64,000 bases of DNA from Candidatus Omnitrophota bacterium (GTDB lineage Bacteria; Omnitrophota; Gorgyraeia; Gygaellales; Profunditerraquicolaceae): positions 204,772-268,771 of the forward strand of contig JAQUOD010000002.1 of assembly GCA_028717245.1 (NCBI GenBank). The letters run 5' to 3'. The first letter of the stretch is position 1; each line of letters begins with the position of its first letter. The notes below the pieces were generated by a model. The model saw only the letters and a program-made list of their open reading frames with translations, did not search any database and was not told the DNA's origin. The translations under genes were made by a program, and so were the position numbers. Shown piece by piece: positions 56-47,554 of this stretch.

Positions 56-3000
56 ATGAAGCGTTGTGAGGCTGCTATCATGAAATTAATCATGGAACAG
101 AACGGGACTCTTTCTGATTGGGAGGTTTTTTATTATTACGGTTGGTATATGCGGATAAGGAAGAAGTCAGCAGCGGCGAGCAGATTTAGCGGTTCATCTT
201 TAAGAGGTCTCCCAAATATTGTTTTGGCGCTCGGCACAGGATTTATCGCCGCAATGCTTTTAAGAGCAAATGGCCATTCCGGTATTAATTGGTTGAATAT
301 TAGCGCTGGTTTACTATTAGCCGGATTGCCCGTTTATATCATGATAAGAGGTCTTAGAAAAATTTCCATTAACGATTTATCCCAATCCCTAAAAAAACTT
401 ACCCGCGATGATATAATAGGATTTATAATCTTGGTTGGTTACCTTATTGTATATGCTGCCATTGTTTACGCGGCATTTTGGCTTATGCAACTGACGGCTG
501 CTCCTTCTTTAGCCCCGCACTCAATGTTGCCCAATATGCCGTTTGGCCAGGCCTTACCCTTCACTATTTCAGATTTAACTGGTTTCTTCATTAGCGCCGC
601 TTTTTTGGTTGGGATGGCACGGGGTTCGATAGGCGGCGCAGGCCAGCGTAATATTATAAGGGAAAGTGGCAATGCCAAAAAGATAATGCCCGAAGACGAA
701 ATAAGGGCCTCTGTGACGAATTTATATGTATGGTTTGACATTCTTAAAGGAACGGATCCTAAGATATCAGCGGCTTTAAGTAAGATTTATTCTGCTTATC
801 AAGAATTAGATTTTAGTCAGAATAATCGGGCTAAATTAAATGAGTTAACAGAAGCAAAAGCGAGGCTTAAGGAAGGATTAGAGCAGCTCCGAGGGATTCT
901 TCTGGGGAGAGAAAATGAGCTTACAGGAGTTATGGCTAAACTACTGGAGAAACAGCGGGTAGCAAGTAAAGACGCACCAACAAGAATAGGAGAAATGAAG
1001 AGGGAGATTAAAGCAGCGCTTGCAAAACTGGAGAGCAAAAGCACTAATGCGCTTAGCCTCAATCCCTATGCATTTTCACTTATATTTTCCATTCTTGCGC
1101 CTTTTATGCCGGTTTTAGGCCCGCTTGTTAGCATTGCCGTGAACCAGATGTACTCTCTGCCGGCTTGTATATTTGTGATTGAGGCAATATTGAATAAAAC
1201 TCAAGCCAAACGCAAGCCCAAAGAAGATATGGTTAAAGAAACAGAAGATGAAAAATCCGAAAGGCTCAGGCAGGCAAAAATATATTATAAAGAAGGGCTT
1301 TATTATGCTCAGGCAGGGCTTACTGATTTCGAAAAGGGAAATGTAAAAGCAGCAAGGAGAAACTGGTTTACGGCGATACGAAACTTTAAGGAGGCAACTG
1401 ACTCAAGCTGGGAATATACCGAAGCTTATTATAATTGGGCATTAGTTTATTACAGATACTATAATACGTTTGTTAAGCAGCCATCGCCACGGGGGGTCTT
1501 CGCTAAAATTGCAGCAGCAATAAGAGGAGACGAAGAGCATAAAAAGGAAGTTTGGGAGGAATATTTATATGAGATTAAGTTTATCTTAGGATTGTTTCCA
1601 GAATTGCGGAAGAAGCTAGAGGGTAAGATTATTATACCGGATTTAGATTCAGGAGACATTTCACCGAGCCCATCTGGAGGTAATAATTCTCTAGCCCATG
1701 GTGGCGATGTTGGCAAGGCACAATTTAGCTTAGGGAGCGGTTCTGAAGCATCAGGAATAGAGTTGGTTACCGGTCGTGAACCTCGGGAGCAATATTACGG
1801 ACCAGTTCCTGACGGGGATCTATTTAGGGGCAGCACAAGAGCCAAGCATAAATTTGAGGATGGAATAACAAGAAGCAGCGGCAGAGCGCCAGGCAAGAAA
1901 ATCTATAAAAGCCAGATTATTAGAGATGCAATTAGAGATAGAATTCCTTGTTTCTTCCTGATGCTAGTGAAAAACATTGATTTTGCGGTACCGATAAAAA
2001 GGATAATCGTCCCCAGAGATATTGCGAATTTGGAATTAGAAGGGAAAACCCCTTTTGAAAAGAAAGTTATCAGGTTAAGCCATGATTTACTGAACCAACT
2101 AAAGAATCAACATAATATTGAGGTCTTGATTAAAGAAGGCGATGATTCTATTCTAGAACATGAAACTGAAGACTTTGGAATTACTTTAAACGGCGCAGAA
2201 GGAAGGTTAAGCCCGGAGAATTTTAAGGAGATCTCAAGAAAAACCGGAAGCCTTCTAGCTGGACTACATAAGGCAGGCGTAATCGCTTCGGATTCGCACC
2301 CCGCAAATTTTATCGTTAATACTGAAACGATGGAAGTAAGAAGAATAGATTTTGAGTGGGTTGACATATTTGATAAAGAGTTAGCCCGTGAGTTAACGCA
2401 AAAATATGAATTTTCCGAAGCAGAATTAAGAGGATTAGGTATCCATTCAACCAGAATACCCAGCAGTGAAATGACTAAAGAAATTCTTACTCTTATTTGG
2501 ACTGAAAAGGACAAGTCGAAAAATTTGCATAATAGTTTATTTATCTGGCCATTTGCCGGGGGGTATTTATCAGTCAAGCATGAGTTTGATGAATGGGAAG
2601 AAGACCTTGAGAGAATGCTGTATTATTTACTCTCATTTAGAGACAAGGAAGAAGGCAATTTGGGAGGCAAAGCAAATACAGAAGCCGAGCAGTATGGCAA
2701 AACAGTTCCTGAAAGTGAGCAGCCGGTAAAGGAAACAAGGCCTAATCCTGCCAGCTCAATAGAGGTGATAGAGGCAACCCCTAAATACCGCCAAGATATA
2801 ATCTCTCTCATACATAGCTCTTTCCCCGAGCTTGACAATGAAATGGAGAGGATCCTTCGGGATAATCGGGTGTTTGTGGCTTTGGTTAAAGTTAGGGAAG
2901 AATGGGAATTCGCCGGAGCGGTCCTGACCGCAATAAAGAGGGTTATCAATGAAAAAGGAGAAATTGTTCTTCCGGCTACTTATATTGATGCCTCAAAGCA

Positions 3001-6000
3001 CGAGAGTAATTTCACAGCGCAGCCCCATAGCTTTTGGTTGATTGATTTTGCTATCGCTGTTTCTCCGGAAATTAAAGTAAAAGGCATATCTGATGCTTTA
3101 ATCCAGGCTACGGATAAGTATACCGATGAGCAGGGATTAATGAGGCCAGATGCTGCCAGCCGCGCACGGGATGCAGGAAAGTTTAAAGATGCCCTTCTGC
3201 AGGAGCGGGCAAAGGCCCTTCCTGAAGCTAAAGCAAAAAACCTTTCTGGCCTTAACATAATGATACGTTACCTTATGACTACAACGCTAAACCCCAAAGG
3301 AGTGGTTAAAGATTCATTCGCAAAATATGCAGCAATGCCCAACGGTATGAGCCCGTTTTTGCTCTGGCTTAAGGAATCCAAACGCCTGGCAAGGTCAGAT
3401 GGCGTGGATGATAGCCCTTATGCCAATTTTGTTAACGTTATTTCCCCCCTCTTAGAAGAAATTGACAAACACTCCCCTAAAGACCTCGAAGGCTTCCTGA
3501 AAACTTATGATGATTTTGATTATTCCCGCCTTGCCCAGCCGGACGTGATTGAAGAATTTGGAAAACTTCTGCGTGACTTCATCAATGGTTCCTCCAGATA
3601 TGAAGACCAGATAATAGCCGGCCTGCATATGCGCCTGGGAGCCCATATCGGAAGGATAACCAAAAACAGCCTCCCCGGCCACCCCGAGACTTTAGATATG
3701 AACATCCATATGTTTTATCCAGAAAAAGTAAATGACAATATTCCACCGGCAGATAATCCGGTTTTGCCTGTACAAGGGGTGTCCCCAAATGGGACGTCCT
3801 CAGAAGCGCATGCAAGGAATATGATTCCTCCGCTTGTGTTGACTCTTTATTTTGCCAGGATGGCTGGTTTTGCTATGCCTTCTTTAGAATTATCTGCGAG
3901 CGAGATCGATCCGGTGATAGTTATACTTTTGCTTATGTTTTTATTTGTGATAAAAAAGGTAGTGGTGGAAGAGATTGATAAAAGGAGTGAAAAATTGAAT
4001 AGGGCCAGGATTGACAAGATACTCAATAGTAACGAAATAAAGGCAGATGATACAGTGGCAAAGCCCGTTATTAAAAACTATAATTATCCGGAAAGAATTA
4101 CTCCGCATAATGCTCCTATAGCAAAGGTCTTTAAAGAACCCTTGCCGCCTTCAGCCCGGTTTTATCCAAAGACAGAACCTTCATTAAGATTGATGGACTC
4201 TAAATATCAGAATATCGCAAGGGAGTTTAAAGAAGCCATTCAGAATAAACCTTTCCCAACTGAAGGTATGTTCCTTGAAATAGGCCACGGCGGGAATCTA
4301 TCTTCCCCGGGTTTTGCTATTAAATTTGGGCTTGAGCCTTGGGGCATAGATTTAGATAGGCATGCTAATGCCGATACGATAAATGATATTGTCGGACAGG
4401 CTGAAAATATCCTGCCTTTGATAAAAGATAATTCTTTTGATGTGATAGCTGTTATTGATACCTTTGGAATTATGACCAGAGAAAATAGTTTTTATAAAGC
4501 TCAACCCATAGATCCGGTATGGTTAATAATGCAAATAGCCCGGATATTGAAACCCGATGGTTATTTGGTTATCGCAGATTTTTCCGCAGATTTAGAAGAT
4601 TTGAAGTTAAAGTATGGGATGGAACTTAATAAATTAGCTGAAGGCGCAGGCCTTAAAGTTTTGAGATATCGCATTGAAGGCAGTAGGGCAATCTCTATTA
4701 TCTATAAGCCATCAGAATTATCTCCATTAGCCCCCCGCGTAGGAGCCGCTGGTTTGGAGATAGCGGAATTTAAAAAGCCGACAGAAATAGGGTTAGGTCA
4801 AAGGCCAAGTACTGCTGTTACCCTAGATGATGTTCAACTACCTTCTGTTATAGAAAAAGACCGTAAGGATGCAGCGTTAAGCAGCCGCTCAAGGATAGAA
4901 ATAGAAGAAGTGCCTATTCCTGATGCTATGGCAGAAGACGCCAGCAAGGACTCCTTTAGTTTTAAGGAATATATGGACGCTGCGTTATATAATCCTGGCT
5001 GGGGATTTTATGGCTCAGGAAGGGTGCAGTTTACGCGAGGCAAAGATTTCGAGACCTACCCTAAAATACTTTCTCCTGTATTCGGAGAGTTAGTCTGCGA
5101 ACAGGCTTTTAAGATGTGGAAAGGCATGCTGGCTGCAAAGACTATAAGCGAGGCAGAGGAATTTACAATAGTAGAATCTGGCGCAGGCGAAGCAGATTTA
5201 TCCTATGATTTATTATCCCACGCCGAAGAGTTGGCAAAATCGGATGAGCTTTGGAATATTTTCTACCGGCAGCTCGTATATATTAGTTTAGAGCGTTCGC
5301 CGAAATTAGTAAAAAGGCAGAAAGAGAAAAACGCAAAATTCAGTCCGAAATTTCGGGTTATAGAAGGGGATGCCCGCGATGTAGCTAAGCTTATCAAAAA
5401 ACCTATTAAAGGATTAATCCTTTCTAATGAACTGATGGATAATTTCGCTGTTTATAAGGTTAGATTTGAACCAGACGGCGCAACAAAGACTCCCTTAGCC
5501 ATTCCTTTAATCAGCGTTGAGCTCGCCAAGGAATTAAGCAAAAGAGGCATAATCCGAGAATTGGATTTAGCAATGAGAAACGAACAATTGAAGAAGGATT
5601 TTTATCTCCCTAACAAGAAAGGGAAACTTTATATATCTAAAAGCGATTTCTTAAAGATTAAGGCAGAATTAAGCAAGCAAGAATATAGACAGTTGGAAGA
5701 TAGCTTTGATACCCAGATAGATTTTGTTGAGGCGTATTTGGATATTAAATACTTCCCTGAATTATTCGATTATGTCCATAAGAACAGAAGGGAGCTATCT
5801 TTTGCTATAGCCAAGGAAGCAAAAGCAGTTACTGCTTATCTTAGCCCGGATGCGGTTAGGTTTATTCAGTCCGCAGCAGGAATTTTAGATAAAGGTTATA
5901 TCCTGACTATAGATTACGGAGCAAGTACGCAGGGACTCTTGAATCCAGAATACATAAAGCATCCGATAATGATGTATGGCCCTGTATCTGTACGCGATAT

Positions 6001-9000
6001 CTTCGATGCCAATCCTTATCATTTACCGGGAAAATGCGATATTACCGTAGGTGTAGATTTTACCTCTTTGGTAGAAACCGGCGAAAATGCGGGATTGAAA
6101 TTAAAATTCTATGGTGTTCAGGGGAATCTTGAGTCAGGGATAACCAATTTGTCTCATGATGAGGAATCGAAGAGCAGGATAGTAGCCCGCCGCCTTAAAA
6201 GAGAGTACCCTCAGGCGAAGGCTCCTGAAGGTTTGCAAGAGGGAATAAGAGGCCAGGTCGAAGATGACATAAGGAGTTTTAAAAAAGATTTTCTTGGTGG
6301 CAATAGCGTTAAAATGCTAATACAGCAGAAAGAAGGCACTGATGAACAGTATGAATACAAGATACCTTCCGTAGTATCTCTTGAAGAAATGAGTTTATTC
6401 GCCAGGAGAAAAATCCCGGCCAAGCAAAGGCCTTTATTCCTTGAGCCGCGGATTAACGCCGCGATATTTATCGATGATTTTTGTAATTTAGGTTTACCAG
6501 AAAAAATAGACGCAGACGTTTTAGTTAAAGCTATCCGCGCATCCGGCATATTGCTGATGCCAGATAATAAAGACAATAAAAAATTTATTAAGAAAGAACG
6601 CTTTGAACCTTACGAGTTTGCTTCAAATTCCTATCCAGCTTATCACTGGTTAGTTTTTGGAGGGCAATTGGAAGCTTGCATTGCAAATCAGGCGAGAGAG
6701 ATTATATCAGGGGTTAGCGAATGCCCTGCTAACACTAAAATGTGGATTACATTACCATTGAATGCCATCGGATGTTTTTCTGGTAGAGACGAAAGAAAGT
6801 ATGGTTTACCGAGATATTTAGCAAAGTACCTTGTAAAGGAATATAGTTCATTTGCCGAAGGCTTACGGCCAATAAAGGAACCTTATACGCAAATTGATAC
6901 TAAAGACGTAGAAATTAATTTCGGGGATTGGGCAATAGTAGAATTTGATCCATACTCTAATGCGTCGATTTTTCAAGAGAATATAGGGTTAACCATATTA
7001 GAGAACGGCCGAGAACTGTGTTGTATTAAACCTGATGGCCGAAGAATGGTAGTACTTAATTTTATCTCTAAAAAACCAGAAAATGTATTCAGTTTATTGC
7101 AACAGAGTAGCGCAATCAAACAAGCCGGACAAAAAGAGAGCATATCAGGAAATAACACCCTGCCGCAAGGCACGATTAACAAAAAAACCCTTAACCCTGC
7201 CTTAGGCCCCGGAACATATGATCCTCGAGATCTGGCAACTCTTCAGGGGCAAAACAGTAATTCTGGAAAAACAGGGTCAGATTCAATTTTTTCCTATATT
7301 CTCGCCCATGATTTTATGAGCCCTAATAAAGTGGGGTATATTCAGGCAATAAGAGCTATGTTACCGGTAAAGAATCAAAGGAGGAGGTGCCTTTATATTG
7401 CCTTAGGCGGAGATTATTCAACCAGCCAAATGGTATCGCAGGCCCTAGAAACTATTTGTGTGGATAGGCTTCCTTTTGAGCCTTTAATAACACTATCTAA
7501 AGAAGAGGCGGATTTATATAAAGCCGTGTATATCAAAGACAGGTATTATGCGAATTTTGCTTCTTCAGTCCAATCAGTTGAAGGCGCAGTATTAAGGCGC
7601 GTAGGCGCTAAAGAATATTTTCTTTGGGAATTGGAAATGATGGGAGCCCAAGATATAGAAATAAGTTTTGATACCGCCCTTAATGCCAATAAGATTAGTT
7701 TTATCCTCCCGGGCGAATCGATGCAAAAAAGCATAATTTATTTTAGTTTTGACGCCAGGAATATAGAAGCCTACCCTCAGGCTCTGCTCAACCTTATAAA
7801 AGAAGGATTAGATTCTTTTATTTTTAAAGCCAGCGACGGCGTGGTTTTACCTCTTCAGATCAAAGACATAATTACCAACTCCTTTGATCCGGAAGCTATG
7901 CTGTTTCTGGATAGCGAAGCTTCATTTAGCCACACTTATCTTGAAGAGATAGATGAGGCAAAAATGGGGCAAATCAGGAATTTTGAAAAAATGGGTTATG
8001 CCTTTGGATATGAAAAAGTTCGTTTATTAAGGCCTAAAAAGCCCGAAATCCCCTCCCTCCCCGCAGGTGGGATAGAGGTTGAGAAAAGAAAGACACGGCA
8101 GCATCATTCGAATGACATATATCAGGAACCGTCCCCGCTGCCGTCTCTGCTAGCTAAGAATAGAATAGAGGTTTACCTAGATGATATTGCCCCCAGATTT
8201 TTTAAATTAATGAGAGCTGAATTTTCAGATGATAACAGGCTTTGTCTTATTTCTTCCAGAATTACGGGTTTAGTCCTGGCAGATAAATTTGGGATTCCTA
8301 TAGATAACAAGAGCGCCAATAGGATGGAGGTAAGGTTATGCCCTTATTTTGATGATGGCGGGAAACGTTACCATCAGATGCTTATAATTTATCGCAATAA
8401 TAACCCATGGCTTTTTGTTTATCCTGTCCTGGGATTGTTCTATAGCGGCTTAGAAGGCAGGATAATCTGCAGGGATTATCAGAAATTAAGCGAGTACAAT
8501 TTTATGGACCAGGGAAGGACAAGCTGGGTTCTCGATGAGCAGTTACAACAAAGAATAGAAAGGGTAGCCCAAGAGATTGTAGGGGATGGAAATTTAGGCT
8601 ATGGCAGCATAGCGACAACACAGCTGGCACCTTTTGAGAAGATATCCAGGGCATTAAAAATAGAAAAACTGCTTAATGAAAACTTACGGCAGGAAGGATT
8701 AAATACTCCCATTAAACATGAAGGAACAAAGGGGCTTTTCTACGAATCGGATATTTCTGATGTGGTCAAGGCCTGTCAGGTAATAGGCCTTGAGGGTAAA
8801 AGAGGCATTGATTTAGGCGCAGGCGTTGGCCACGCAGTGTTTGCTATGGCAGTAGCCGGCCTTCGGGGAGTAGGCATAGAATGGGAAAACCATTTAATTG
8901 GTATTGGTAATGGCCTCTTAGATAACAAAGAATTGAAGAAACTCGTTGATACCAGCCGCGTTGACTTAAGGCAGGGCGATTTTATGCAGGAAGATTTAAG

Positions 9001-12000
9001 CCAATACGACATAATTTACTATTATTGGAATGGCGCAGGTTATGGCAATGAAAATAAAGCCCAGGATGCGCTTATGCAAAAGATTAAGCAAGAAATGAGG
9101 CCGGATACCCTGTTGATTATTTACAGAGGGCTTGATACGCTTTCCCTCCCGGGATTTGAAAGAAAAGATTACCCCGGAATTCCCGAGACGGTGAGAGTAT
9201 TTAGGAAAGCCGAGGATATACGCAGCGATTTAGATAGCCCTGATGCAGAAATTAGAAGCAAAGCCATAAGTACTTTGCTGCGCTCAGACGAATACACGGA
9301 TAAAGAAAAGACACTTTTATTATTAAAAAGAGTTATGCAGGACGATGATAAATCAGTACGCACAGAAGCAAGAAGGGCGCTTACTATTCTCTGGTATGTA
9401 ATTGAAGGAAGGCCGAATAATAATTTTGCTGAAGTCCTGCAAGATGTGGGGCAGGGGCTTGCAAAACCAGAACGCGAAACTTTATTAGATATTCTGGTAA
9501 ATTCATTCCTTAACCGGGAAAGCCGCTATGCGCTTAACCGCTTTTGTTTGGATACATTTATGAAAGAGAATCCTAAAGTAAAGATTAATATCGACGAACG
9601 AATTCTGGAAGCAGACAATGTTGCCCCATATCTTATAACCATTGCCGGGCAGCTTTCCGGAATAAATCAGGAGAGCCTGAATTTAGAAATTATATTTTTG
9701 GATAACGTAAATGCAATTGAGAACAGGATTATGGAATCAGAGATTACCTTGCGTAAATATGGGGAGAACGGGCCAAGGGAGATGTTGATTAATATAGCCG
9801 CATTTAAAGAAAAAGCAGGCTATTCTTCGCAGGAGAACGTTATTTTCGCCAAAAAGATTTCCGAGGTATTGAATCAGTGCATTAATAAAGATAGCTGTGA
9901 TTTCGCTCCGATTGACAATACCAAAGCGGCATTGGAGGGTTTTGTGCCTTTGGATGAAAGCTTTCTCTGGAAGATAAGCAATTTATATTGGCAGTTAATG
10001 GGGAAGGATTCTTTTAAAGACCCGTACGCAGATACTTCGTTTTTCCCTGAATTACCCACGCACTTGAGAAAGGTACCCAACGGTTTATATGTTTATCACA
10101 GTTTTGCTTCTGCCTGCGCGGATAAATTCTCTAAGTATCTTTGCGAATTAGAAAATAGAGGCGATTTACCCGGGAGGATTATTGTTCAAGAATGGGGCGT
10201 GGGGAATGCCGATTTTCCGGAAAAGTTCCTGGGCGCCCTAAAACGGCTAAGCGCAGAAAAAGTAAAACAGCAGGGAGGGACGGATTTTTACGGGAGGGTA
10301 ACTTATGTAATAGGCGATATATCCCTTAAGATGTTAGAGAATATACGGCAGGCAGAATGGTACCCCCAGCATAAAGAGAAGATAGAATTTTCCGTAATGG
10401 ATGCCGTAAACCCTCCCCAGGCTTATCGGGGCAGGACTCTATTATTGATAAATAGCTATCTCTATTGCGTATTGCCGGCAAAAGTGATTGCGAAGAAAGA
10501 GGGCCGTTTTTACGAGATGTGCGTAAGGGCGTATCTGAATAAAGACATACGTATTAAAACCCGGGAGGGAAAGGACGTTTCAGCCGAAGAATTCACAGAG
10601 ATGCTGGTAAAAAATGATATACAGGCGCTTTCAAAACTCAACCCGTCTTTCTGGTATGCGTTGAATTATGAAGAGGTATATAAAGAATTTGATCCTCGGA
10701 GTAATAGCTGGGGTGATTACATAGCATGGATAACGCAAGGTAAAGATAATTGCCGGTTCATAATTAATAATCAGGCGTTAGAGAGCTTAACAAAGTCGCT
10801 TGATTTATTAGATGAAAAAAGAGGGATGATTTGGATATTTGAATTGACTTCGCCGGATGCATTAAATAACCCCCTTGCCGGCCCGATGAGTTTTGGCCCT
10901 ACGCTGGCTACACCTGTAAATACATCCTTATTGGAATACGCAATTAATAAAAACCGCGGTTGGAAAATCTCGGTTTCTCCTTCAACTATGTTTTTGCCGG
11001 AAGATACGAAGCGCGCCCAAAAATATACCTATATTGAAGTAGAAAAGAACAAATCCCCGCATATAGATACAAAAAATACGGCCTTATGTTTCAATCCCTT
11101 CATATTTTCGCTTCTTATCCCTTCCCTTATGCCCCTTATTATATTTTTGGGCGTGGCGGTATTTCCCTCTGCTCCTTTCATACCCGCGTGGCTGCCTGTA
11201 ATCAAAACAATGGTTACTAGCGCTGTAGTAAAGATTCAAAATATAGTTAGTAAGATAAAGGATAGATTCATACAAATAAAGCCAGTCCTTTATTTAGATA
11301 TATTAATATTCTTTTTTACAATCGGCATATTTATTCCTCTCTATTTCTTCCGAGATAAGATAGGAGAATTAGGAGCCTATGGCTATTTTGTGGCGTTCTG
11401 TATCTCAATACTCACTAACCTGACGGTATTTTTCCCTGTTCCAGGCATTGTAGCAACAGGTGCTTTAGCAACTGTGTTTAACCCTTTTTGGATTGGTATC
11501 GTGGTTGGCATAGGGGCGACTATCGGACAGATTACAAGTTATGGTTTTGGTTATAGCGGTAAATCCATAATTAATGGAAATCGTATCTACCAAAAACTGA
11601 TGAATTGGATACAGGGTTTGCTAATATACAAAAAAATAAATAACTGGGTAGAGAAACGGCCAAACCTGTCTATTTTTATTAGTTACTTTTTTCCTATTCC
11701 GGGTGTATCTGATACTGTCGGAGCAATAGCCGGTAGCGCAAAGTACCCTTTTTGGAAATACTTTATCTTTTGTATGTTAGGCAATATCCCTAAACATATC
11801 TTTTATGCTTATTTTAGCGCCTGGGGATTAAATTTATTTTTCCCGGATATTTTTAAATTGGGTATCTCCGGAAATCCTTTAATCTCTTTACCTCTTCTGG
11901 CAATAGCAAACTTACCTATAATGGGATATGATGATTTTGAAGGAGAAGAAGGAGAAAACCACAGAAAGAGGCCAAAGAATAAAAAAAGAAGAGAGGAAGA

Positions 12001-14604: not shown

Positions 14605-15294
14605 GTGAAAGATAGAAGACGCAGTATCCGCTGGCAGATAAATCAACAGGCAAAGGTGAAATTAGAGGGCGCCTATGCCTTTATCCAATGTTTTATTAAG
14701 GATATCAATTTTACGGGCCTGCAGATTTCTCTCCGTATGAAGTTGCCGGAAGATACATTTTTAAAGTTTAACCTGGTTTTATCTGAAGAGGCTACTTTAG
14801 ATATAGAGGCATGGGTAGTTTGGCATAAAAGGAGAGATGATTTTAATGTCTACGGCCTTCGTTTTACTCAGATAAATGAAGAAAACAGGGGGGAAATCTA
14901 TAAATTTCTCTATAAATATTTCCCTGAGGAGGTGGTTAAAAGATGGGGACAAAAAACAGCAGTTAATACAGGAGGCGAGACTATGCAAGACAAGAGGATT
15001 TTTGAGAGGTTTCCCGCGAGTTTACCTTTAAGATTCATCGACTTAAGCGTAAATAAAGAGAGCCAGGCGCAGACACAGGATATCAGCGCTAAAGGGATTG
15101 GGCTAATGACAGATAAAGAGCTTAGCCCGCAAACGCCTTTAGAGATGTGGCTGGATATCCCTGACCACCGCGAGCCGCTTTATACCCGGGGAGAAGTGGC
15201 CTGGTCTAAGCTATTGGGGCCCGATAAATACAGGGTAGGAGTTAATTTAGAAAGGGCGGACTTAATGGGTATAGCGCGGATATTAAGGTCATAA
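14605..15294 (+). CDS. tandem PilZ-domain protein (c-di-GMP receptor-like)
   Basis: Two repeats of the PilZ signature: RRRSIRW ... DINFTGLQI, and KRIFERF ... DISAKGIGL. GTG start, with AAAAAGG upstream. Confidence 0.7.
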   Translation: MKDRRRSIRWQINQQAKVKLEGAYAFIQCFIKDINFTGLQISLRMKLPEDTFLKFNLVLSEEATLDIEAWVVWHKRRDDFNVYGLRFTQINEENRGEIYKFLYKYFPEEVVKRWGQKTAVNTGGETMQDKRIFERFPASLPLRFIDLSVNKESQAQTQDISAKGIGLMTDKELSPQTPLEMWLDIPDHREPLYTRGEVAWSKLLGPDKYRVGVNLERADLMGIARILRS

Positions 15295-15564: not shown

Positions 15565-15906
15565 ATGGAGGACCGCAGGGTGTTCGCCCGGATAAATACC
15601 AGTTTTCCTGTAAGATTCTTAGACCCCACTCGCGGGATAGAGGGCCGGGCAGAGACGGTGGACATTAGCGCTAATGGCTTGGGTTTAGTTACTCAAGAAA
15701 ACTTATCGTCCAGGACGCCTTTAGAGATTTGGTTGGACATTCCTGACCAACATGAGCCGCTGTATACCCGGGGGAATGTGGTCTGGTCACAGGCCTCTTC
15801 CGATGCAGGGCAGCAGCGCGTAGGCATACGTTTGGAAAAAGCCGAACTCATGGGCCTGGCGCGCGTATTATGGATGCGGAAACAAGCAGAGGATAGGTTT
15901 AATTGA
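15565..15906 (+). CDS. single PilZ-domain protein, paralog of the C-terminal half of the upstream tandem PilZ protein
   Basis: RVFARI ... DISANGLGL motif. Roughly half the residues are identical to residues 130-229 of the upstream protein. RBS GGAAGGAGAG. Confidence 0.7.
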   Translation: MEDRRVFARINTSFPVRFLDPTRGIEGRAETVDISANGLGLVTQENLSSRTPLEIWLDIPDQHEPLYTRGNVVWSQASSDAGQQRVGIRLEKAELMGLARVLWMRKQAEDRFN

Positions 15907-15914
15907 GTTTGTTA

Positions 15915-17249
15915 ATGAAAAGGATTTGTTGCGCGTTTTTATTTGTTTTTTGTTCTTTTTTATGCCTCGCCGGTTGCGTGCCGCAGCAGTCGGATAAATA
16001 CCAAACCACCTTGACTGTCTGGCATTGGATGACCGACAGAGAAGAAGCCTTCCAGGAGTTGGCCAAAAGATATGAGGCTTCTTCCGGCGTAAAAGTAAAT
16101 TTTGAACTCTACGCGCCATCGGATGCCTACGCGCAGAAGGTGCGCGCTGCTGCCCAGGGGCAAAACCTTCCTGATATTTTTGGCGTGCTGGGCGAGACGC
16201 GGGATTTCGCGTCCTTTATAAAGGCGGGCCATGTCTTGGGCCTGACCTCCTATATGGATGCAGACAGCGCTAAATGGCGTAATACTTTTTTCAGTAAGGC
16301 CCTGGCAGTAAACGGATTCTCCGACGGTAACAGCTACGGCATCAAACCCGGCATTTACGGCGTACCCATAGATATTATGACCATCCAGATGGTCTATAAC
16401 AAGGATTTATTCAAGAAATTAGGGCTTAACCCCAATGCGCCTCCGGAAACTTTTGCGCAATTCCTGGAGATAGGAAAAAAGATATCCGCCACAAATCGTG
16501 GCGGATCGGGCGGAAAAGAGGCAAAGATGCAGGGCCTGGTTTCCGGGTGGGGAGAGATATGGATGATAGATTGTTTAGCAAACAATTACGCTTTTAATAT
16601 CATGGGCGAGGACAAGGTATTGGCCACCATAAAAGGTGAGATTCCCTATACCGATCCCGATTGGGTCAGGGTATTAACGCTTTTTAAGGAGATGCAGGAT
16701 TCGGGGGTTTTATATAACGGATTGGTGACCATGGCCAATAAGAACGCGGAGCAGTTATTTGCTAACGGAAGGGCGGTCTTTGCCTTTAACGGTTCATGGT
16801 GCGTAAATGTATATAAGTCCATGAATCCGCGCCTGGATTACGCCGCAATGCTCCTGCCAAAGGCCTCGGAAAAATTTCCGGTGAGTATCTGGGGAGGCGC
16901 CGGTTCTTCATTTATGGTAAGCGCTAAATCAAAAAATAAAGAAGAGGCAGTAAATTTTTTAAAATGGCTTACTGACCGCAGCCAACAGGCATATTTAGCG
17001 CAAACTACTTCCAACCCCCCGGCAAATAAAGAGGCGTTAAGTGAGATTCCTCCTGTCCTGGCGCAGTTTGCCGATGATATGGAGTACGCCACGCATCCGA
17101 ATACTTGGGGCGTATCCGAGTCACCCCAGGTTATAGAAACCTTTAATAGAGGGATACAGTCAATAATTATCGGCGAGAAGAGCCCCGAACAGGTAGCGCA
17201 GGAAACGCAGAAGATTAAAGAAAAAGAATTAGCAAAAAAGAAACGATGA
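15915..17249 (+). CDS. ABC transporter substrate-binding lipoprotein, carbohydrate (family 1 SBP)
   Basis: Lipobox LAGC after a hydrophobic signal; overall extracellular solute-binding protein pattern. ATG 15915 is preferred over the TTG at 15903 reported by the ORF track. Confidence 0.7.
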   Translation: MKRICCAFLFVFCSFLCLAGCVPQQSDKYQTTLTVWHWMTDREEAFQELAKRYEASSGVKVNFELYAPSDAYAQKVRAAAQGQNLPDIFGVLGETRDFASFIKAGHVLGLTSYMDADSAKWRNTFFSKALAVNGFSDGNSYGIKPGIYGVPIDIMTIQMVYNKDLFKKLGLNPNAPPETFAQFLEIGKKISATNRGGSGGKEAKMQGLVSGWGEIWMIDCLANNYAFNIMGEDKVLATIKGEIPYTDPDWVRVLTLFKEMQDSGVLYNGLVTMANKNAEQLFANGRAVFAFNGSWCVNVYKSMNPRLDYAAMLLPKASEKFPVSIWGGAGSSFMVSAKSKNKEEAVNFLKWLTDRSQQAYLAQTTSNPPANKEALSEIPPVLAQFADDMEYATHPNTWGVSESPQVIETFNRGIQSIIIGEKSPEQVAQETQKIKEKELAKKKR

Positions 17250-17276
17250 TTTCGTTATTGGGTTACTTGCGTTTTT

Positions 17277-17327
17277 GCGTTATAGCGTTCGAACGCAATA
17301 ACGCTATAACCCTATAACGCTATAACG
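17277..17327 (+). promoter_or_regulatory. 28-bp imperfect palindrome centred on GCGTTCGAACGC, plus three CTATAAC(G) direct repeats, between the SBP and permease genes
   Basis: GCGTTATAGCGTTCGAACGCAATAACGC is self-complementary except for one position per arm. It is followed by GCTATAAC CCTATAAC GCTATAAC immediately before the ATG at 17328. Confidence 0.4.
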
Positions 17328-18206
17328 ATGAGAATTAAGTCCACATTAGAAAATTATCTATTTGTTTTGCCCGCGGTATTAATCTTCGTTATTTTTTACA
17401 TTATTCCTTTTATCTGGGTCTTTCAACTGGGGATGTATGAATGGGACGGTATACTCCCCACCAAGGTCTTTGTGGGCCTGGCGAATTTTAAGGAGATATT
17501 CTTTGAAGATAAGATCTGGTGGCAGTCCATGCTTAACGCCGGATGGATTACTTTTATTGCTTTAACTTTTCAAAATGCCCTGGCATTTCTTTTAGCCTTA
17601 GCCTGTGACCGCGAGATAAAACTAAAGCATTTTTACCGGCTCATCTTTTTTATCCCGCCGGTTTTATCCGAGGTAGTGGTAGGCCTGGTCTGGCAGTGGA
17701 TGCTCGACGGGAACTATGGGTTGTTAAATCATTGGCTTACGCAATTAGGCCTGGGGAATTTAGCCAGGAATTGGCTCTCTGACCCCCGAACCGCACTTAC
17801 TACCGTGGCTATTGTGCATTCCTGGAAGGGGTTTGGCTGGGGATTTTTGATATTTTTAGCCGGCCTGCAGACGATACCGCGCGAACTCTATGAGGCGGCG
17901 CGCTTAGACGGAGCAAATGCCTGGCATTGTTTTAAAAAGATTACCCTTCCTTTAATGGTGCCTGTGGCAGTATTGGTAGGGATACTCACGGTCTTAGGCA
18001 CCATGCAGGCTTTTGTCCTGATTACGGCCATGACCGACGGCGGCCCGGCATATCATACGCAGGTGCCGGTGCTAAGGATCCTGTGGGCAATGCGCGGTTC
18101 ATCGCGTTTCGGTTATGCCTGTGCCCAGGGGATTAGTTTCGGTTTGATTCTGGTGGCAATTTCTTTTATTCAGTACCGTTTTTCGCGCAAGGCGCGCCAA
18201 GCATAA
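17328..18206 (+). CDS. carbohydrate ABC transporter permease (MalF/UgpA-like, 6 TM)
   Basis: EAA-type permease motif region ELYEAARLDGA...ITLP. Confidence 0.75.
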   Translation: MRIKSTLENYLFVLPAVLIFVIFYIIPFIWVFQLGMYEWDGILPTKVFVGLANFKEIFFEDKIWWQSMLNAGWITFIALTFQNALAFLLALACDREIKLKHFYRLIFFIPPVLSEVVVGLVWQWMLDGNYGLLNHWLTQLGLGNLARNWLSDPRTALTTVAIVHSWKGFGWGFLIFLAGLQTIPRELYEAARLDGANAWHCFKKITLPLMVPVAVLVGILTVLGTMQAFVLITAMTDGGPAYHTQVPVLRILWAMRGSSRFGYACAQGISFGLILVAISFIQYRFSRKARQA

Positions 18207-18208
18207 AC

Positions 18209-18315
18209 TCGCACCTGGTGCGAAACTGAGATTGTACCGTTTCTGAATTTAAGCTTGTACCTGGTACCCGATTGGTTTCGCAGACGGTATAAGATTGGAT
18301 CTGCACCTGGTGCCA
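18209..18315. repeat. degenerate composite copy of REP family A (GCACCWGGTGC palindromes)
   Basis: GCACCTGGTGCGAAACTGAGATTGTACC, then GTACCTGGTACCCGATTGGTTTCGCA, then GCACCTGGTGCC. It matches the other family A copies with substitutions. Confidence 0.55.
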
Positions 18316-18322
18316 AAATGAA

Positions 18323-19171
18323 ATGAAGACGATAGCGTATTATAAGACTAAGAAGGTAATGATAAATTTATTCATCCATCTTTTTTTAATTACCATTGCC
18401 GCAAGCTGCATATTTCCCTTGTTATGGATGGTTTCCTCAAGCCTGAAGACCCAGGAGACGGTATTTAAAGACATGTCTTTAATCCCGCATCAGTTTCATT
18501 TTGAAAATTATCTCCTTGCCTGGAAAGAAGGGGGGTTCGGCAGGTATGCCTTAAACAGCATAATTTACACTGCCTCGGTGGTAATCGGCATAATTATTAT
18601 CGCCTCTTTAGCCGCTTACGCGTTTAGCCGCTTGCGTTTCCCGGGAAGGAATATTCTTTTCTTCATGTTTATGGCGGCGATGATGATACCCATACCCGGA
18701 AGTTTTGTTCCCCTATACGTCCTCTTGAGTAAATTGCACTTAAGGAATACCGCCTTGGGCTATATCCTGTGCATGGTGAGCGTGGGGTTATCCACAAGTA
18801 TCTTCCTTTTAAAGACCTTTTTTGATAAACTTCCGCGCGAATTAGAAGACGCGGCCAGGATAGACGGGTGCTCCAAATTCGGCATCTGGTGGCACGTGGC
18901 TTTACCTTTGGCAAAACCGGTATTGGCAGTAGTCGTGGTCTTTAACGCCCTGAATGTCTGGAACGAATACGTGCTGGCCCTGATAATATTTGAGAATAAA
19001 AACCTGATGCCCCTGCAACGGGCGTTGATGATGTTTCGGGGAGAGTTCTTGACTGATTACCCGCTTTTGATGGCTGGCTTGACTATAACGGCCCTGCCTA
19101 TAATCATAGTGTACCTCCTGATGCAGAAGTATATTGTTAAGGGAGTAACTTCCGGCGCGTTATTTGAATGA
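18323..19171 (+). CDS. carbohydrate ABC transporter permease (MalG/UgpE-like)
   Basis: ELEDAARIDGCS permease signature; 6 TM segments. Confidence 0.75.
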   Translation: MKTIAYYKTKKVMINLFIHLFLITIAASCIFPLLWMVSSSLKTQETVFKDMSLIPHQFHFENYLLAWKEGGFGRYALNSIIYTASVVIGIIIIASLAAYAFSRLRFPGRNILFFMFMAAMMIPIPGSFVPLYVLLSKLHLRNTALGYILCMVSVGLSTSIFLLKTFFDKLPRELEDAARIDGCSKFGIWWHVALPLAKPVLAVVVVFNALNVWNEYVLALIIFENKNLMPLQRALMMFRGEFLTDYPLLMAGLTITALPIIIVYLLMQKYIVKGVTSGALFE

Positions 19172-19179
19172 AAAAATTG

Positions 19180-19216
19180 TTTAATGCGCGAGGCATATTT
19201 GTTATAATGCCCATAC
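19180..19216 (+). promoter_or_regulatory. candidate promoter with extended -10 (TGTTATAAT) for the MFS gene
   Basis: TTAATG-16-TATAAT with TG at -15/-14; RBS AAAGGAGAGAGG before the ATG at 19264. Confidence 0.4.
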
Positions 19217-19263
19217 TTATCGTCACTAATTAGGTAAAACCTAATAAAGGAGAGAGGTTATCA

Positions 19264-20763
19264 ATGGAACAATCAACTAGTCAGCCAAAACACCATGTTA
19301 CGGCCCGCGAAGACCGCATCCCTGTTTTTCAAAAAGCCATATACAGCATAGGAGGGCTGGTTAATAGTATTCAGTCCGCAGCTATTGGGGCGATGGTCAT
19401 TGTTTTAAACATCGGATTAGGCGTGAACCCCGCTTTAGTGGGCCTGGTGGGGGCCATCCCTCGCCTTATCGACGCCATATCAGATCCCATTACCGGCTAC
19501 TTTTCAGATAATTTCCGAAGCCGATGGGGACGCCGCAGGCCTGTTATATTCTTCGGAGCGATTATCGGGGGAATCCTTTTCGCATTGATGTTCCAGCTAT
19601 ATAAGGGGCATAGCGAGAGTTTCTATTTCTGGTATTTCGCGGCATTCCAGAGCCTTTATTTTCTTGGATTTACCTGTTTTTCCATCCCCTGGATCGCCTT
19701 AGGGTATGAAATGACGCCTGATTATCATGAACGCACACGCTTGCAGGCGGCCAGCAATTTTATCGGCCAATTTGCCTGGATAATCGCTCCCTGGTTCTTC
19801 AAGATTATGGACAATAAGAGTATGTTTGTAGATATTGTCCATGGGGCGCGAGTCCTCTCAATAATCCTTGGTGCCTTTATCGTGGTTGGCGGCATACTTC
19901 CGGCAATTTTTATCAAAGAGCGTTTCGCTGACATACCGAAACCTAAAAGAGGAGAGGGCCCTTGGAATATTACCAAAGACTTCTTCCGCGGTTCTGTGAT
20001 TGCTTTCCAATGCCGCCCGTTTGTTAAACTGTGCGCGGTAACATTCTTGATCTTTAACGGATTTATGCTTGCCTCCGCCTTCTCAGCCTATGTTATTTTC
20101 TTCTATGTGTATCATGGCGATTATTCCAAAGGCGGCACACTGCTTGGTTGGTTTGGCTCGCTTAGTTCCGTTTGTACTTTCTGCGTCATTTACTTGGCCA
20201 CATGGCTCTCCACAAAGATCGGCAAGCGAAAAACCTTTTTAATCACCATTTCCATTTCCATCATCGGTTACGCTTTGAAATGGATAGGGTATAACCCCGA
20301 CCATCCATACTTACTGCTGATCGCAGCCCCCTTTATTGCCTTCGGCCTGGGATCGCTCTTCACATTGGTCAGTTCCATGGTTGCCGATGTTTGTGATTTT
20401 GACGAACTTTTGACCGGCACGCGCAGAGAAGGTTTGTTTGGCGCTATTTACTGGTGGATGGTAAAACTGGGACTTGCGATTTCATCGCTTCTCTCCGGGA
20501 TCCTCCTGAATGTAACCGGCTTCAATATCGCATTAGGCGCTAACCAGACGGTCAGCGCTTTATTCTGGATGAGGATATGCGATATCGGAATTCCAATTGT
20601 GACCTCTTTAGTTGCTATTTTCATTATTATGACTTTTGAAATTTCAGAAGCTAAGGCATGTGAAATTCGTGCGCAGGTAGAGCGGCGAAGAGGGGAAAGA
20701 CGAAGCGAAGAAATGCGGGTAGAAGAAGAAAGGCGTAGAGGCGAAAGACGGGAACAGGGTTAA
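19264..20763 (+). CDS. MFS transporter, glycoside-pentoside-hexuronide (GPH) cation symporter family; Arg/Glu-rich low-complexity C-terminal tail
   Basis: GPH signature DxxxxxxGRRRP (SDNFRSRWGRRRP), 12 TM. The tail ERRRGERRSEEMRVEEERRRGERREQG is encoded by imperfect direct repeats. Confidence 0.75.
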   Translation: MEQSTSQPKHHVTAREDRIPVFQKAIYSIGGLVNSIQSAAIGAMVIVLNIGLGVNPALVGLVGAIPRLIDAISDPITGYFSDNFRSRWGRRRPVIFFGAIIGGILFALMFQLYKGHSESFYFWYFAAFQSLYFLGFTCFSIPWIALGYEMTPDYHERTRLQAASNFIGQFAWIIAPWFFKIMDNKSMFVDIVHGARVLSIILGAFIVVGGILPAIFIKERFADIPKPKRGEGPWNITKDFFRGSVIAFQCRPFVKLCAVTFLIFNGFMLASAFSAYVIFFYVYHGDYSKGGTLLGWFGSLSSVCTFCVIYLATWLSTKIGKRKTFLITISISIIGYALKWIGYNPDHPYLLLIAAPFIAFGLGSLFTLVSSMVADVCDFDELLTGTRREGLFGAIYWWMVKLGLAISSLLSGILLNVTGFNIALGANQTVSALFWMRICDIGIPIVTSLVAIFIIMTFEISEAKACEIRAQVERRRGERRSEEMRVEEERRRGERREQG

Positions 20764-20799
20764 TATATCCAAGGGAGTAACCATGGGAGCGATTGTAGG

Positions 20800-23145
20800 A
20801 TGATAAGTTCAGTTTTAAGCTATAAGCTATCAGTTTTAAGCAAGAAAAAAAATATTTTGTTTCTTTTGTTGCTGTTTCTTACAGCTTACAGCTTACAGCT
20901 TACAGCTTACAGTTGTTTTGCTGAAGAGCTAAGTAACCCTTCTTCCGGCGAGCTCATCGTCAAGGCCTGGGAGGCGCACGGTAAAAGAGACACAGAGGCG
21001 ACTTTTAGATATACGCAGGAGTGTATTGATTTATATAAAGGAGAAGCCGATAAACAACAGGCAGCCTTAGGGGCGCTTCCTAAGAATAAAGAAGAAATCG
21101 GGCAGGTAGCGGTTTTAAATGACGTAGCCACCGCTTATTTTATTCAGGCAGAAAGCCTGATGCGCCAGGAAAAGATTGGAGAAGCCAAGAAGATTTTTCA
21201 ATTAATTATTGATAAATATTCTTATGCCCAGGCGTGGGATCAGCGCGGCTGGTACTGGCAGGTCGCGCAGGCAGCAGGCCAGAGCATAAAGAAGATAGAG
21301 ATCGGCTCCATTGAGATAGATAAAAAAATCAAAATAAGCCAAATCTCTACTACTATAACCCTATACGATACGGGTAAGGAAGACTTCGTAGATTACGCCA
21401 AATACGGCGAGTTTAAAAATATCGGGACAAAGGATTACGCCTATGTAATAAAAGACCAGGAAGGTTTGAGCCAAGCAGTAGGCGAAGGCATCTATCCGAA
21501 TACTAGTTCAGTCAGGTGGGACCCGGAATTTAAAAAGGCGCGCGAGGAAAAAAGGCTGGAAGGCAACCACTGGGATTTTTTGCATTCCCCGGATTTGGAA
21601 GCTGCTTTTTTAAAATGGGCCACTACTTCTGAGCCGATGGGGATAAAGTTATTTTATACCGGCATTATCTTAGAAAAGGCAGGCCTGATAAAACACGCCA
21701 TTAAATGCTATTATGCTATTGTGGTGCATTTTCCGGGCAGTACCGGCTGGACTTATTGGCATACGCCCTGGTCAGTGGGGCAGGCGGCAATCTCCAAAAT
21801 AAATTTTCTCCTGCGCACCCAATCCAATTTAGGCTATAAGCTTGTGGATGCGGATATCCGCATCATTAACGGATACGATAATGATATCTCTAACGATATC
21901 GTGATTACCAATCCGGGCAGGTTTGAAAAGGTCAATTTTTTAGAGAAATTCAAACCCAAAACATTGCCCGCAGGGGCAAAGAATATCAAGCGGCGCCTGG
22001 GAGAAGGCAAAGTGCACCTGGTCCAATATGAAAACGGAGACTGGCAGCTTATGGTGAATAATAAGCCCTATATAATTAAAGGTATTACCTACGCCCCGAC
22101 AAAAGTAGGCGAGTCTCCCGATGAAGGGACAATGACCAACTGGATGGAAGACGATTTTAACCAAAACGGCAAAATCGACGGGCCTTATGACGCCTTTGTG
22201 GACAAAAACAGGAATAACCTGCAGGATGCAAATGAGCCGAGCGTCGGAGATTTTTATCTCATGAAGGAAATGGGTGTAAATACTATCCGGCTCTACCAGC
22301 AGCCTTTTAAGGTAAATAAAGAGCTGCTGCGTGAACTTTATCAGAATTACGGTATTATGGTGATTATGGGAGATTTTTTAGGTAAATATGCCTTAGGTTC
22401 CGGGGCGAGCTGGTATCCGGGTACGGATTATAATAACGAAGAACACAGAAAAAATATGTTGGAATCCGTCATCAAGATGGTTTTGGAATTTAAGGATGAA
22501 CCATACGTTCTGTTCTGGTTATTAGGTAATGAGAATGTCTATGGGTTTGCCTGTAATGCCAATACCGAGCCGGATGCCTTTTTTAAATTTGCCAATGAAG
22601 TAGCCAAACAAATCAAGGCGATTGACCCTGAGCATCCGGTAGCTATCTGTAGCGGCGATACCTTATTTTTAGATAAATTCGGCAAGAATTCATGCGATAT
22701 TGATATCTTCGGCACCAATGCCTACCGGGGCGAATATGGTTTTGGTTTTATCTGGAAACAGGTAAAAGAAGAGGCGGATAAAGCGGTATTTATTACGGAA
22801 TTCGGCTGCCCGGCTCATGCTGAGAGTAAAGCCTTAGACAAAGCGGAATTTTTGCAGGCGCGATATCATCAGGGGGCCTGGGGCGATATAGAGCATAATA
22901 TGGCCTTTCAGCATGGCGCGGGAAATGCCTTAGGTGGCGTAGTCTTTGAATGGCTGGATGAATGGTGGAAGGCCTATGAGCCTTTTTTGCATGATACCAA
23001 AGGCCTCTTCACCGGCCCTTTTCCCGACGGATTTATGCATGAGGAGTGGCTGGGTTTGAGCGGCCAGGGCGACGGCAAGCTAAGCCCGTTCTTGCGGCAG
23101 TTACGCCAGTCATATTATACGTATAAGAAATTATGGAGGCGATAG
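20800..23145 (+). CDS. secreted clan GH-A (TIM-barrel) glycoside hydrolase-like protein with an N-terminal helical/TPR-like region
   Basis: Signal peptide. LLGNENVYG (NE acid/base) and FITEFGCP (nucleophile) occur at the spacing typical of GH2/GH5-type retaining hydrolases. Paralogous to 24489..25748. Confidence 0.55.
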   Translation: MISSVLSYKLSVLSKKKNILFLLLLFLTAYSLQLTAYSCFAEELSNPSSGELIVKAWEAHGKRDTEATFRYTQECIDLYKGEADKQQAALGALPKNKEEIGQVAVLNDVATAYFIQAESLMRQEKIGEAKKIFQLIIDKYSYAQAWDQRGWYWQVAQAAGQSIKKIEIGSIEIDKKIKISQISTTITLYDTGKEDFVDYAKYGEFKNIGTKDYAYVIKDQEGLSQAVGEGIYPNTSSVRWDPEFKKAREEKRLEGNHWDFLHSPDLEAAFLKWATTSEPMGIKLFYTGIILEKAGLIKHAIKCYYAIVVHFPGSTGWTYWHTPWSVGQAAISKINFLLRTQSNLGYKLVDADIRIINGYDNDISNDIVITNPGRFEKVNFLEKFKPKTLPAGAKNIKRRLGEGKVHLVQYENGDWQLMVNNKPYIIKGITYAPTKVGESPDEGTMTNWMEDDFNQNGKIDGPYDAFVDKNRNNLQDANEPSVGDFYLMKEMGVNTIRLYQQPFKVNKELLRELYQNYGIMVIMGDFLGKYALGSGASWYPGTDYNNEEHRKNMLESVIKMVLEFKDEPYVLFWLLGNENVYGFACNANTEPDAFFKFANEVAKQIKAIDPEHPVAICSGDTLFLDKFGKNSCDIDIFGTNAYRGEYGFGFIWKQVKEEADKAVFITEFGCPAHAESKALDKAEFLQARYHQGAWGDIEHNMAFQHGAGNALGGVVFEWLDEWWKAYEPFLHDTKGLFTGPFPDGFMHEEWLGLSGQGDGKLSPFLRQLRQSYYTYKKLWRR
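20878..20912 (+). repeat. perfect (CTTACAG)x5 heptanucleotide tract inside the signal-peptide coding region
   Basis: Five exact 7-nt units at 20878-20912, encoding LTAYSLQLTAYS. Confidence 0.9.
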
Positions 23146-23174
23146 GGGGGGTGGTAAGAAGCATAAATAGATAA

Positions 23175-23233
23175 AAGGGACAGGTACAATCTTAATTCCG
23201 CACCAGGTGCCCGATTAGATTTGCACCTGGTGT
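23175..23233 (+). repeat. REP family A copy (A2)
   Basis: AAGGGACAGGTACAATCTTA..GCACCAGGTGCCCGATTAGATTTGCACCTGGTG; an internal hairpin is formed by GCACCAGGTGC / GCACCTGGTGC. Confidence 0.8.
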
Positions 23234-23262
23234 AAACAAAAAATAAAGAGGAGGTGTGGGAG

Positions 23263-24402: not shown

Positions 24403-24407
24403 AACCC

Positions 24408-24484
24408 TAGGGACGGTTCTCAAGCCAAAGCAAGAAGTGTCCCCATAAGGGGACACTTCTCCGATTGGACTAAGAACCGTCCCT
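24408..24484. repeat. REP family B doublet (B1): ~77-bp long palindrome
   Basis: TAGGGACGGTTCTCAAGCCAAAGCAAGAAGTGTCCCC-ATAA-GGGGACACTTCTCCGATTGGACTAAGAACCGTCCCT; arms of about 36 bp. Confidence 0.8.
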
Positions 24485-24488
24485 CTAT

Positions 24489-25748: not shown

Positions 25749-25787
25749 GCTATAAGTCCTAAGCTTTAGGCCGAAAAGGAAAAAAGA

Positions 25788-28080: not shown

Positions 28081-28093
28081 ATAATTCTTTCCT

Positions 28094-28122
28094 TGACTTA
28101 TATTCCGGTTAGTAGTATAAAT
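28094..28122 (+). promoter_or_regulatory. candidate promoter TTGACT-17-TATAAA for the ROK regulator
   Basis: Hexamers and spacing were read directly. Confidence 0.35.
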
Positions 28123-28181
28123 AAAGTTTAAGCAAGCATTAAATAAGATAAAAATCCCCGCAGCAATACCAAAAAGATTAG

Positions 28182-46490: not shown

Positions 46491-46565
46491 AATTCTCTCC
46501 CTTTACTTATCCTGCCTTAAGTGTTATAATTCAACTAATAAAATTTACTAAACCAATACGGATAA

Positions 46566-47552: not shown

Positions 47553-47554
47553 AG

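Follow-up and report, generated by a model that had tools for sequence, protein, structure and literature searches.

A predicted divergent protein-kinase-like domain of a very rare family in a giant membrane-anchored protein of an Omnitrophota bacterium

Results

We analyzed a 64,000-nucleotide stretch of DNA from Candidatus Omnitrophota bacterium (assembly GCA_028717245.1, contig JAQUOD010000002.1, positions 204,772 to 268,771 of the forward strand), referred to here as the window. It opens with a giant open reading frame (ORF) encoding a multi-domain protein anchored by transmembrane (TM) segments (Table 1). An original prediction, made from the letters and ORFs of this DNA, had described two protein-kinase-like (PKL) modules in the protein, upstream of its methyltransferase modules, the second being a more degenerate copy of the first. 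We call these regions module 1 and module 2 and the strings by which they had been noticed string 1 and string 2. Kinase likeness stands for module 1, where profile evidence carries it, and falls for module 2, where no test gave a kinase signal. Module 1 is very likely a small atypical PKL domain of a very rare, unnamed family, and residues 980–1001, which hold string 2, are just as likely something other than a kinase remnant.

From nt 2 to the ATG at nt 56 the frame of the giant ORF contains no stop, so the gene may begin upstream of the window. Two minus-strand ORFs (2107–2577 and 2623–2949) are shadows of the giant reading frame. We judged membrane topology from Kyte–Doolittle hydrophobic segments together with lysine and arginine counts (the positive-inside rule). 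By this simple rule, residues 379–1254, lying between two TM hairpins, would be on the cytoplasmic side, as would the methyltransferase part of the protein.

An exhaustive phmmer search with residues 601–1100 of the giant against 1.84 billion representative proteins returned three proteins, two of which are true relatives: P0001 (675 residues; locus L001, 52–2079; E = 1.2e-10) and P0003, a 4082-residue giant with TPR and HATPase_c domains (E = 1.5e-4). The other, P0002 (E = 1.5e-5), is a eukaryotic tandem Ser/Thr kinase protein that was matched on its catalytic loops. Word-indexed homologue searches with residues 601–1060 and with the family alignment gave no matches; scans of genomes (twice), metagenomes (twice), and viral contigs, using as query either the alignment or one sequence on its own, gave no confirmed relative; and tblastn against plasmids and phages gave nothing. 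By BLASTP and phmmer, the only region that the giant has in common with P0001 (residues 72–320) and P0003 (residues 1092–1314) is the one listed as module 1 in Table 1, and it is this common region, as delimited by BLASTP, that sets the module's boundaries. Low-complexity linkers flank it on both sides. Hydrophobic TM-like segments occur in all three family members; P0001 consists of a single N-terminal signal-anchor-like helix, the kinase-like domain, and a C-terminal region, in that order. We rejected a methyltransferase assignment for the C terminus of P0001, which produced a weak PDB match (7v2s, E = 0.02) and no Pfam match.

Table 1. Features of the giant ORF, with nucleotide positions numbered from the first letter of the window
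Feature	Residues	Nucleotides	Strand	Description
Giant ORF, 4824 aa		56–14530	+	TM-anchored multi-domain protein carrying both modules
Module 1	~602–853	1859–2614	+	Predicted divergent protein-kinase-like domain; sole region of the giant in common with P0001 and P0003
K648 in FAVPIK	648	1997–1999	+	Uncertain candidate for the β3 (VAIK-type) lysine
String 1, LHKAGVIASDSHPANFIVNTETMEVRRIDFEW	737–768	2264–2359	+	Predicted end of αE, catalytic loop, β7-β8, and DFE (DFG equivalent)
Catalytic-loop core DSHPAN		2291–2308	+	D746 and N751, predicted equivalents of the catalytic Asp and the metal-binding Asn
D765	765	2348–2350	+	Predicted DFG Asp equivalent; family-invariant in the three-way alignment; paired by hhalign
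Module 2 region	~926–1040	2831–3175	+	Orphan domain; GNAT motif A-like stretch IDFAIAVSPEIKVKGISDALIQ seen by eye
String 2, SKHESNF-TAQPHS-FWLIDFAIA	980–1001	2993–3058	+	Not a kinase catalytic loop; SKHESNF at residues 980–986 (nt 2993–3013), FWLIDFAIA at residues 993–1001 (nt 3032–3058)
Class I S-adenosylmethionine (SAM) methyltransferase module	1400–1517	4253–4606	+	Pfam Methyltransf_31, _11, _23
Methyltransf_28 module	1679–2016	5090–6103	+	Pfam E = 3.2e-28
Third methyltransferase-like stretch	~2918–3016		+	Pfam
HEAT repeats	3059–3109		+	Pfam
VTT/DedA membrane domain	3796–3921	11441–11818	+	Pfam E = 1.8e-12

String 1 is indeed encoded in the giant ORF, starting ~26 nt before the ~2290–2370 interval where it had been placed. 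The spacing of its putative catalytic residues is 5 from D746 to N751 and 14 from N751 to D765. When we shuffled the residues of the 4824-residue protein, the pattern D.HP.N had an expected count of 0.011 and the broader pattern DxxxxN-x(11-16)-[ILV]D[FLW][GE] one of 0.026; each was observed once, at residue 746. By itself, then, the motif is unlikely to have arisen by chance, although it could have, and what makes it solid is the profile evidence. In the alignment of the giant with P0001 and P0003, at 27–30% identity, the invariant residues include an NTGxLLAxxH helix, D746, H748, and D765.

Family libraries queried with residues 601–895 of the giant weakly matched kinase families at one place, residues ~715–775. 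The Pfam matches were to kinase families only (Pkinase, E = 0.0094; WaaY, 0.051; ABC1, 0.1), and the best in NCBIfam were LanKC (1.1e-4), Bud32 (3.4e-4 and 8.6e-4), LanL (9.7e-4), and RfaY (4.9e-3), with two unrelated weak matches, adenosine deaminase and HisB, lower down. Queried singly, P0001 and P0003 also matched RfaY, LanL, LanKC, and Bud32 weakly in the corresponding position, along with a few unrelated weak ones (two SDR-type oxidoreductases and one hypothetical protein). A phmmer search of the PDB with module 1 found MAPK11 and PknA at E ~0.6–1. With a profile built from the three sequences there were 125 PDB matches at E ≤ 10, and every one of the 60 listed is a protein kinase. The match to MAPK11, the strongest (E = 0.001), extends over ~120 residues, beginning at αC and continuing past the DFG motif, with β4/β5, hinge, αE, and catalytic loop in between.

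We also compared the three-sequence profile by hhalign with an alignment of kinases comprising CDK2, PKA, p38α, PknB, and the kinase of P0002. This gave a probability of 90.1%, P = 1.6e-6, and a score of 50.2, pairing D746, N751, and D765 with D127, N132, and D145 of CDK2. Control scores were 13.3±2.8 for 120 column shuffles (maximum 25.3), 19.9 for the reversed alignment, and 13.8 for an alignment of GNAT proteins. Judged by profile similarity and catalytic residues, module 1 is thus a predicted member of the PKL superfamily, lying outside every named family. Placing it on the atypical side of that superfamily, near APH, Kdo-kinase, and RIO-like folds, was reasonable in view of the kinase-family matches, the PDB profile search, and the hhalign score relative to shuffles.

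Structure prediction with AlphaFold2 gave a mean predicted local distance difference test (pLDDT) of 38.6 for module 1 as a single sequence. In the three-sequence model of residues 601–1250, pLDDT exceeds 70 at residues ~631–700 and 771–800 only, and K648 falls in a predicted strand with pLDDT ~57–69. The low-confidence order of elements (a strand, a long helix, two strands, a long helix, three short strands, and helices) is compatible with β3-αC-β4-β5-αE-β7/β8 of a kinase. The top 50 Foldseek matches, all non-significant, are protein kinases or PRPK/Bud32; this all-kinase list repeats some of what the sequence evidence already shows, since kinases abound in the PDB and Foldseek takes sequence into account as well.

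Module 2 behaves differently. String 2 lies where the original prediction had put it, though the stretch between its halves is 6 residues long (TAQPHS) rather than 17. Five residues before N985, where a kinase would have its catalytic Asp, module 2 has S980 (in SKHESN), so the catalytic Asp is absent. The family hidden Markov model, run across the giant with all filters off (--max, domain E ≤ 10), detected one domain only, and a BLASTP self-comparison of the giant found no internal repeat. In hhalign, the family profile scored 16.7 against residues 860–1330 outside a trivial overlap, compared with a null of 14.6±2.3; module 2 against the kinase alignment gave P = 0.27, with the best site elsewhere than string 2. 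Pfam, NCBIfam, and the PDB yielded no matches to module 2, and homologues were found in none of the collections searched, which included word-indexed searches with residues 911–1260, phmmer, contig scans, and tblastn. The proposal of a degenerate second copy therefore does not survive: the catalytic Asp is missing, neither the family profile nor BLASTP finds a copy, and the kinase comparison is at noise level. Rather than the remnant of a kinase, module 2 is a separate orphan domain, so that a second kinase module is removed as a false lead.

Another candidate for a hidden second PKL domain, DSPYANFVNV at residues 1119–1128 (window 3410–3439), resembles DSHPANFIVN of module 1. It has no profile support, and we set it aside as a coincidence.

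Discussion

Several observations weigh against a kinase identity for module 1. The confident part of the hhalign alignment spans 74 columns, from the hinge to DFG only; the N-lobe is aligned to kinases by global hhalign at near-zero confidence, and it is only in that alignment, with a posterior confidence near zero, that K648 falls on K33 of CDK2. K648 is kept in P0003 and missing from that alignment position in P0001. An αC Glu could not be assigned in the family. For the glycine loop, which the original prediction had proposed as a check, we recognized no GxGxxG motif in residues 602–647 of the giant or in its relatives; K614 and P631 are the sole invariant residues of that segment in the three-way alignment. 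Several atypical PKL families likewise have no glycine-rich loop. Within string 1, N751 is replaced by Gln in both relatives and DFE by DLP or DLG, so the string that was noticed first is not the part that the family conserves.

Scores and models add to these points. Module 1 falls below the curated cut-offs of Pkinase (15.8 vs 31.7 bits), WaaY (13.6 vs 20.3), and ABC1 (12.1 vs 22.9), and the NCBIfam kinase models for Bud32, LanKC, LanL, and RfaY failed as well (20.4 vs 174, 20.7 vs 575); because every curated cut-off tested failed, module 1 is in no named family. The three-sequence model of residues 601–1250 has a mean pLDDT of 45.4, with the catalytic loop below 50, and when this poor model was compared with the PDB by Foldseek, no match reached E ≤ 0.001 (best E 0.064, TM-score ≤ 0.3). 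Finally, the topology rule that would put module 1 in the cytoplasm would put the kinase-like domain of P0001 outside it, where ATP is lacking, a location at odds with an ATP-using domain.

These features bear on a serious rival, which we consider unlikely though well worth weighing: module 1 would have the PKL fold and serve an unconventional purpose, as a pseudokinase, a nucleotide-binding scaffold, or an enzyme of AMPylation or Bud32-like ATPase chemistry. Bud32, which is mainly an ATPase within KEOPS, is among the best named matches of module 1, and the unrecognizable glycine loop, the β3 Lys that P0001 does not conserve, the change of Asn to Gln in both relatives, and the near-zero confidence of the N-lobe alignment all fit such a domain. 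Set against them is the invariance of the catalytic Asp and the DFG Asp in three proteins of only 27–30% identity, which argues for retained catalysis; Gln, too, can coordinate Mg, as in alpha-kinases.

For the orphan module 2 we considered a divergent GNAT-type acyltransferase, spanning residues ~926–1040 and perhaps also 1200–1245, an identity that strikes us as improbable. FWLIDFAIAV would be its strand β4 and SPEIKVKGISDALIQ its acyl-CoA pyrophosphate-binding motif A, where VSPEIKVKGISDALI can be aligned by eye with VDPDYQRQGLGRALL of RimI. When module 2 was compared by hhalign with three Pfam-validated GNATs (RimI, SpeG, and AAC(6')-Ib), the best local site was this same motif A-like stretch, but the score (P = 0.25, probability 0.25%) is noise, and since the site had been picked by eye beforehand the agreement is not independent. 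The residues K-V-K-G-I-S depart, conservatively, from the motif A consensus Q/R-x-x-G-x-G/A at two of its three defining positions, and no GNAT-clan Pfam model matches at E ≤ 10. The AlphaFold2 order of elements, β-α-α-β...β-β-α, is roughly compatible with the fold, at low confidence and with pLDDT below 50 in module 2. GNAT modules are common in methyltransferase-bearing giant mosaic proteins (10.64898/2026.06.07.730766).

That the kinase likeness of module 1 might be accidental or convergent, a motif within some unrelated fold, seems to us very unlikely. Such a motif would leave curated thresholds unmet, the structure model poor, and Foldseek non-significant, as we found; it would not be expected to score ~13 standard deviations above column shuffles in hhalign or to align collinearly through the hinge, αE, the catalytic loop, and DFG, and, with the PDB profile match, from as early as αC. 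Each of the three sequences, moreover, matches kinase families when queried singly, beside only a few unrelated weak matches. Least credible of all is a pair of kinase-like modules in which the second is a degenerate duplicate of the first, an idea that draws on local strings only (HESN, followed 12 residues after N985 by D997 in LIDFA, near the Asn-DFG spacing of kinases), has S980 for the catalytic Asp, and is contradicted by every test run.

If module 1 is an atypical PKL domain, as we favor, its retention of D746, N751, and D765, at the positions responsible for phosphotransfer in the superfamily, leads us to predict ATP phosphotransfer. Most likely, Mg-ATP would be held between two lobes and its γ-phosphate passed to a substrate, with D746 catalyzing the transfer, as the residues in the sequence suggest. 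The low-complexity linkers would tether the domain on the cytoplasmic side of the membrane, upstream of several SAM-methyltransferase modules. We would favor a small molecule, a lipid, an envelope component, or a neighboring segment of the protein as substrate over classical signaling targets, because the D-x-H-x-x-N loop is of the APH, lipid-kinase, and HipA type and an activation segment is lacking.

Bud32/PRPK of KEOPS, RIO kinases, WaaY/RfaY, and WaaP or Kdo kinase are, like module 1, domains of ~250 residues with neither an activation segment nor an APE motif, and module 1 has the spacing expected of such kinases from its catalytic-loop Asp to the Asn and on to the second, metal-binding Asp. 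Bud32 and RfaY-type families are among the best weak matches of all three members, and PRPK is in the Foldseek list. Module 1 differs from Bud32, RIO, and WaaY in falling far below their cut-offs, in having no Gly-rich loop, and in the uncertainty of its β3 Lys; it is also embedded in a TM-anchored mosaic of 4824 residues, whereas Bud32-type kinases are free-standing or fused to Kae1.

A second resemblance is to the loops of APH and choline kinases (the PF01636 clan), PI3/4-kinases, and HipA-type proteins. The consensus of APH-type enzymes is HGDLHPGN...IDWE/IDFEY, and module 1 has D-S-H-P-A-N, with the His at +2, followed by IDFEW. This likeness comes from motif reading: no APH or choline-kinase Pfam model matches module 1 at E ≤ 10, and IDFEW is not conserved, VDLPN and IDLGK standing in its place in the relatives. 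At the profile level, the best alignments are with eukaryote-like Ser/Thr kinases (PF00069) and with the kinase domains of the class III/IV lanthionine synthetases LanKC and LanL, from which module 1 differs in having a loop that is not HRD/DLKPEN and in showing no recognizable G-loop, APE motif, or substrate-binding subdomains of the C-lobe.

The co-occurrence of a kinase-like module and methyltransferases on one polypeptide, had been called unusual, a point weakened by a 2026 preprint, according to which TM-anchored multi-enzyme mosaic giants are common in Omnitrophota and methyltransferase, HATPase_c, GNAT, and HAD modules occur together in them (10.64898/2026.06.07.730766). With such giants already catalogued, the arrangement becomes less unusual. 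The protein described here resembles the published mosaic giants (10.64898/2026.06.07.730766; West-Roberts et al., 10.1101/2023.11.21.568195) in being TM-anchored and largely cytoplasmic with methyltransferase and HEAT modules, and P0003, with its TPR and HATPase_c domains, is a giant of the same mosaic type. At 4.8 thousand residues, our protein falls under the set of proteins of at least 10 thousand residues treated in 10.64898/2026.06.07.730766, and the module 1 family is undescribed in that paper. The methyltransferase-like C terminus of P0001, weak as its match is (E = 0.02), could represent a second pairing of a kinase-like domain with a methyltransferase.

Because the protein combines a tether to the membrane with methyltransferase modules and a DedA domain, we speculate that the substrate could be a lipid or an envelope component. 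Taken to its fullest extent, this idea would make module 1 the founder of an unrecognized PKL family with a D-x-H-x-x-N/Q loop, no G-loop, and a place always beside a membrane anchor, carrying out the phosphorylation step of an assembly line at the membrane whose methyltransferase and DedA/VTT parts modify and flip a lipid or envelope precursor; we regard this fuller scheme as a long shot. The finding of module 1 is by itself routine remote homology and brings no new mechanism. It would nevertheless represent a very rare, deeply divergent PKL branch, with three members among 1.8 billion representatives, and, if active, it could provide a handle on what TM-anchored multi-enzyme giants do, whether envelope or lipid modification or self-regulation.

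Genomic context

Approximately 80% of the giant protein is dark, and module 1 adds one more annotated domain to those in Table 1. A Pfam rerun on the leftover dark segments turned up nothing useful. Exact look-ups of the 4824-residue product in the assembly index, and of two adjacent genes, retrieved no record. The VTT/DedA domain also has a weak UptA-like NCBIfam match. By eye, an extra SAM-methyltransferase-like stretch, IIVQEWGVGNADF...YVIGDISLKML, can be seen at residues ~3330–3480 (window ~10040–10500), where Pfam makes no call. Residues 408–460 of P0001 weakly match residues 3331–3383 of the giant (BLASTP E = 0.078).

The other genes of the window are those of an ordinary bacterial chromosome and include genes for PilZ, sugar ABC transporter, MFS, GH2-like, ROK, and PhoU proteins and IS200-type transposases; tRNA and Rfam searches of the window gave no matches. 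A two-domain PilZ protein, of the cyclic di-GMP receptor family, is encoded at 14605–15294 (+), starting 75 nt past the end of the giant gene and on the same strand, and the two genes are possibly co-transcribed. Beyond the giant gene, at 15903–29417, lies a cluster for sugar uptake, with a solute-binding protein, two permeases, an MFS transporter, the GH2-like enzyme, and ROK. In L002, two ROK genes likewise lie near the related giant P0003 (25291–27758), adjoining an AbiEii/AbiEi pair. Farther along the window, a phosphate cluster at 45822–48223 encodes PhoU, a transporter of the PHO4 type, and a PhoU_div/DUF47 protein; PhoU of identical sequence is present on short Logan contigs from SRR22315506 and SRR22315508 and on one contig of 0.2–1 Mb. 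The window also has two IS200-like Y1 transposase ORFs, at 27474–27965 (-) and 35423–35974 (-), matching Pfam Y1_Tnp with E = 6e-17 and 1.2e-18, respectively, and both run in the direction opposite to that of almost every other gene.

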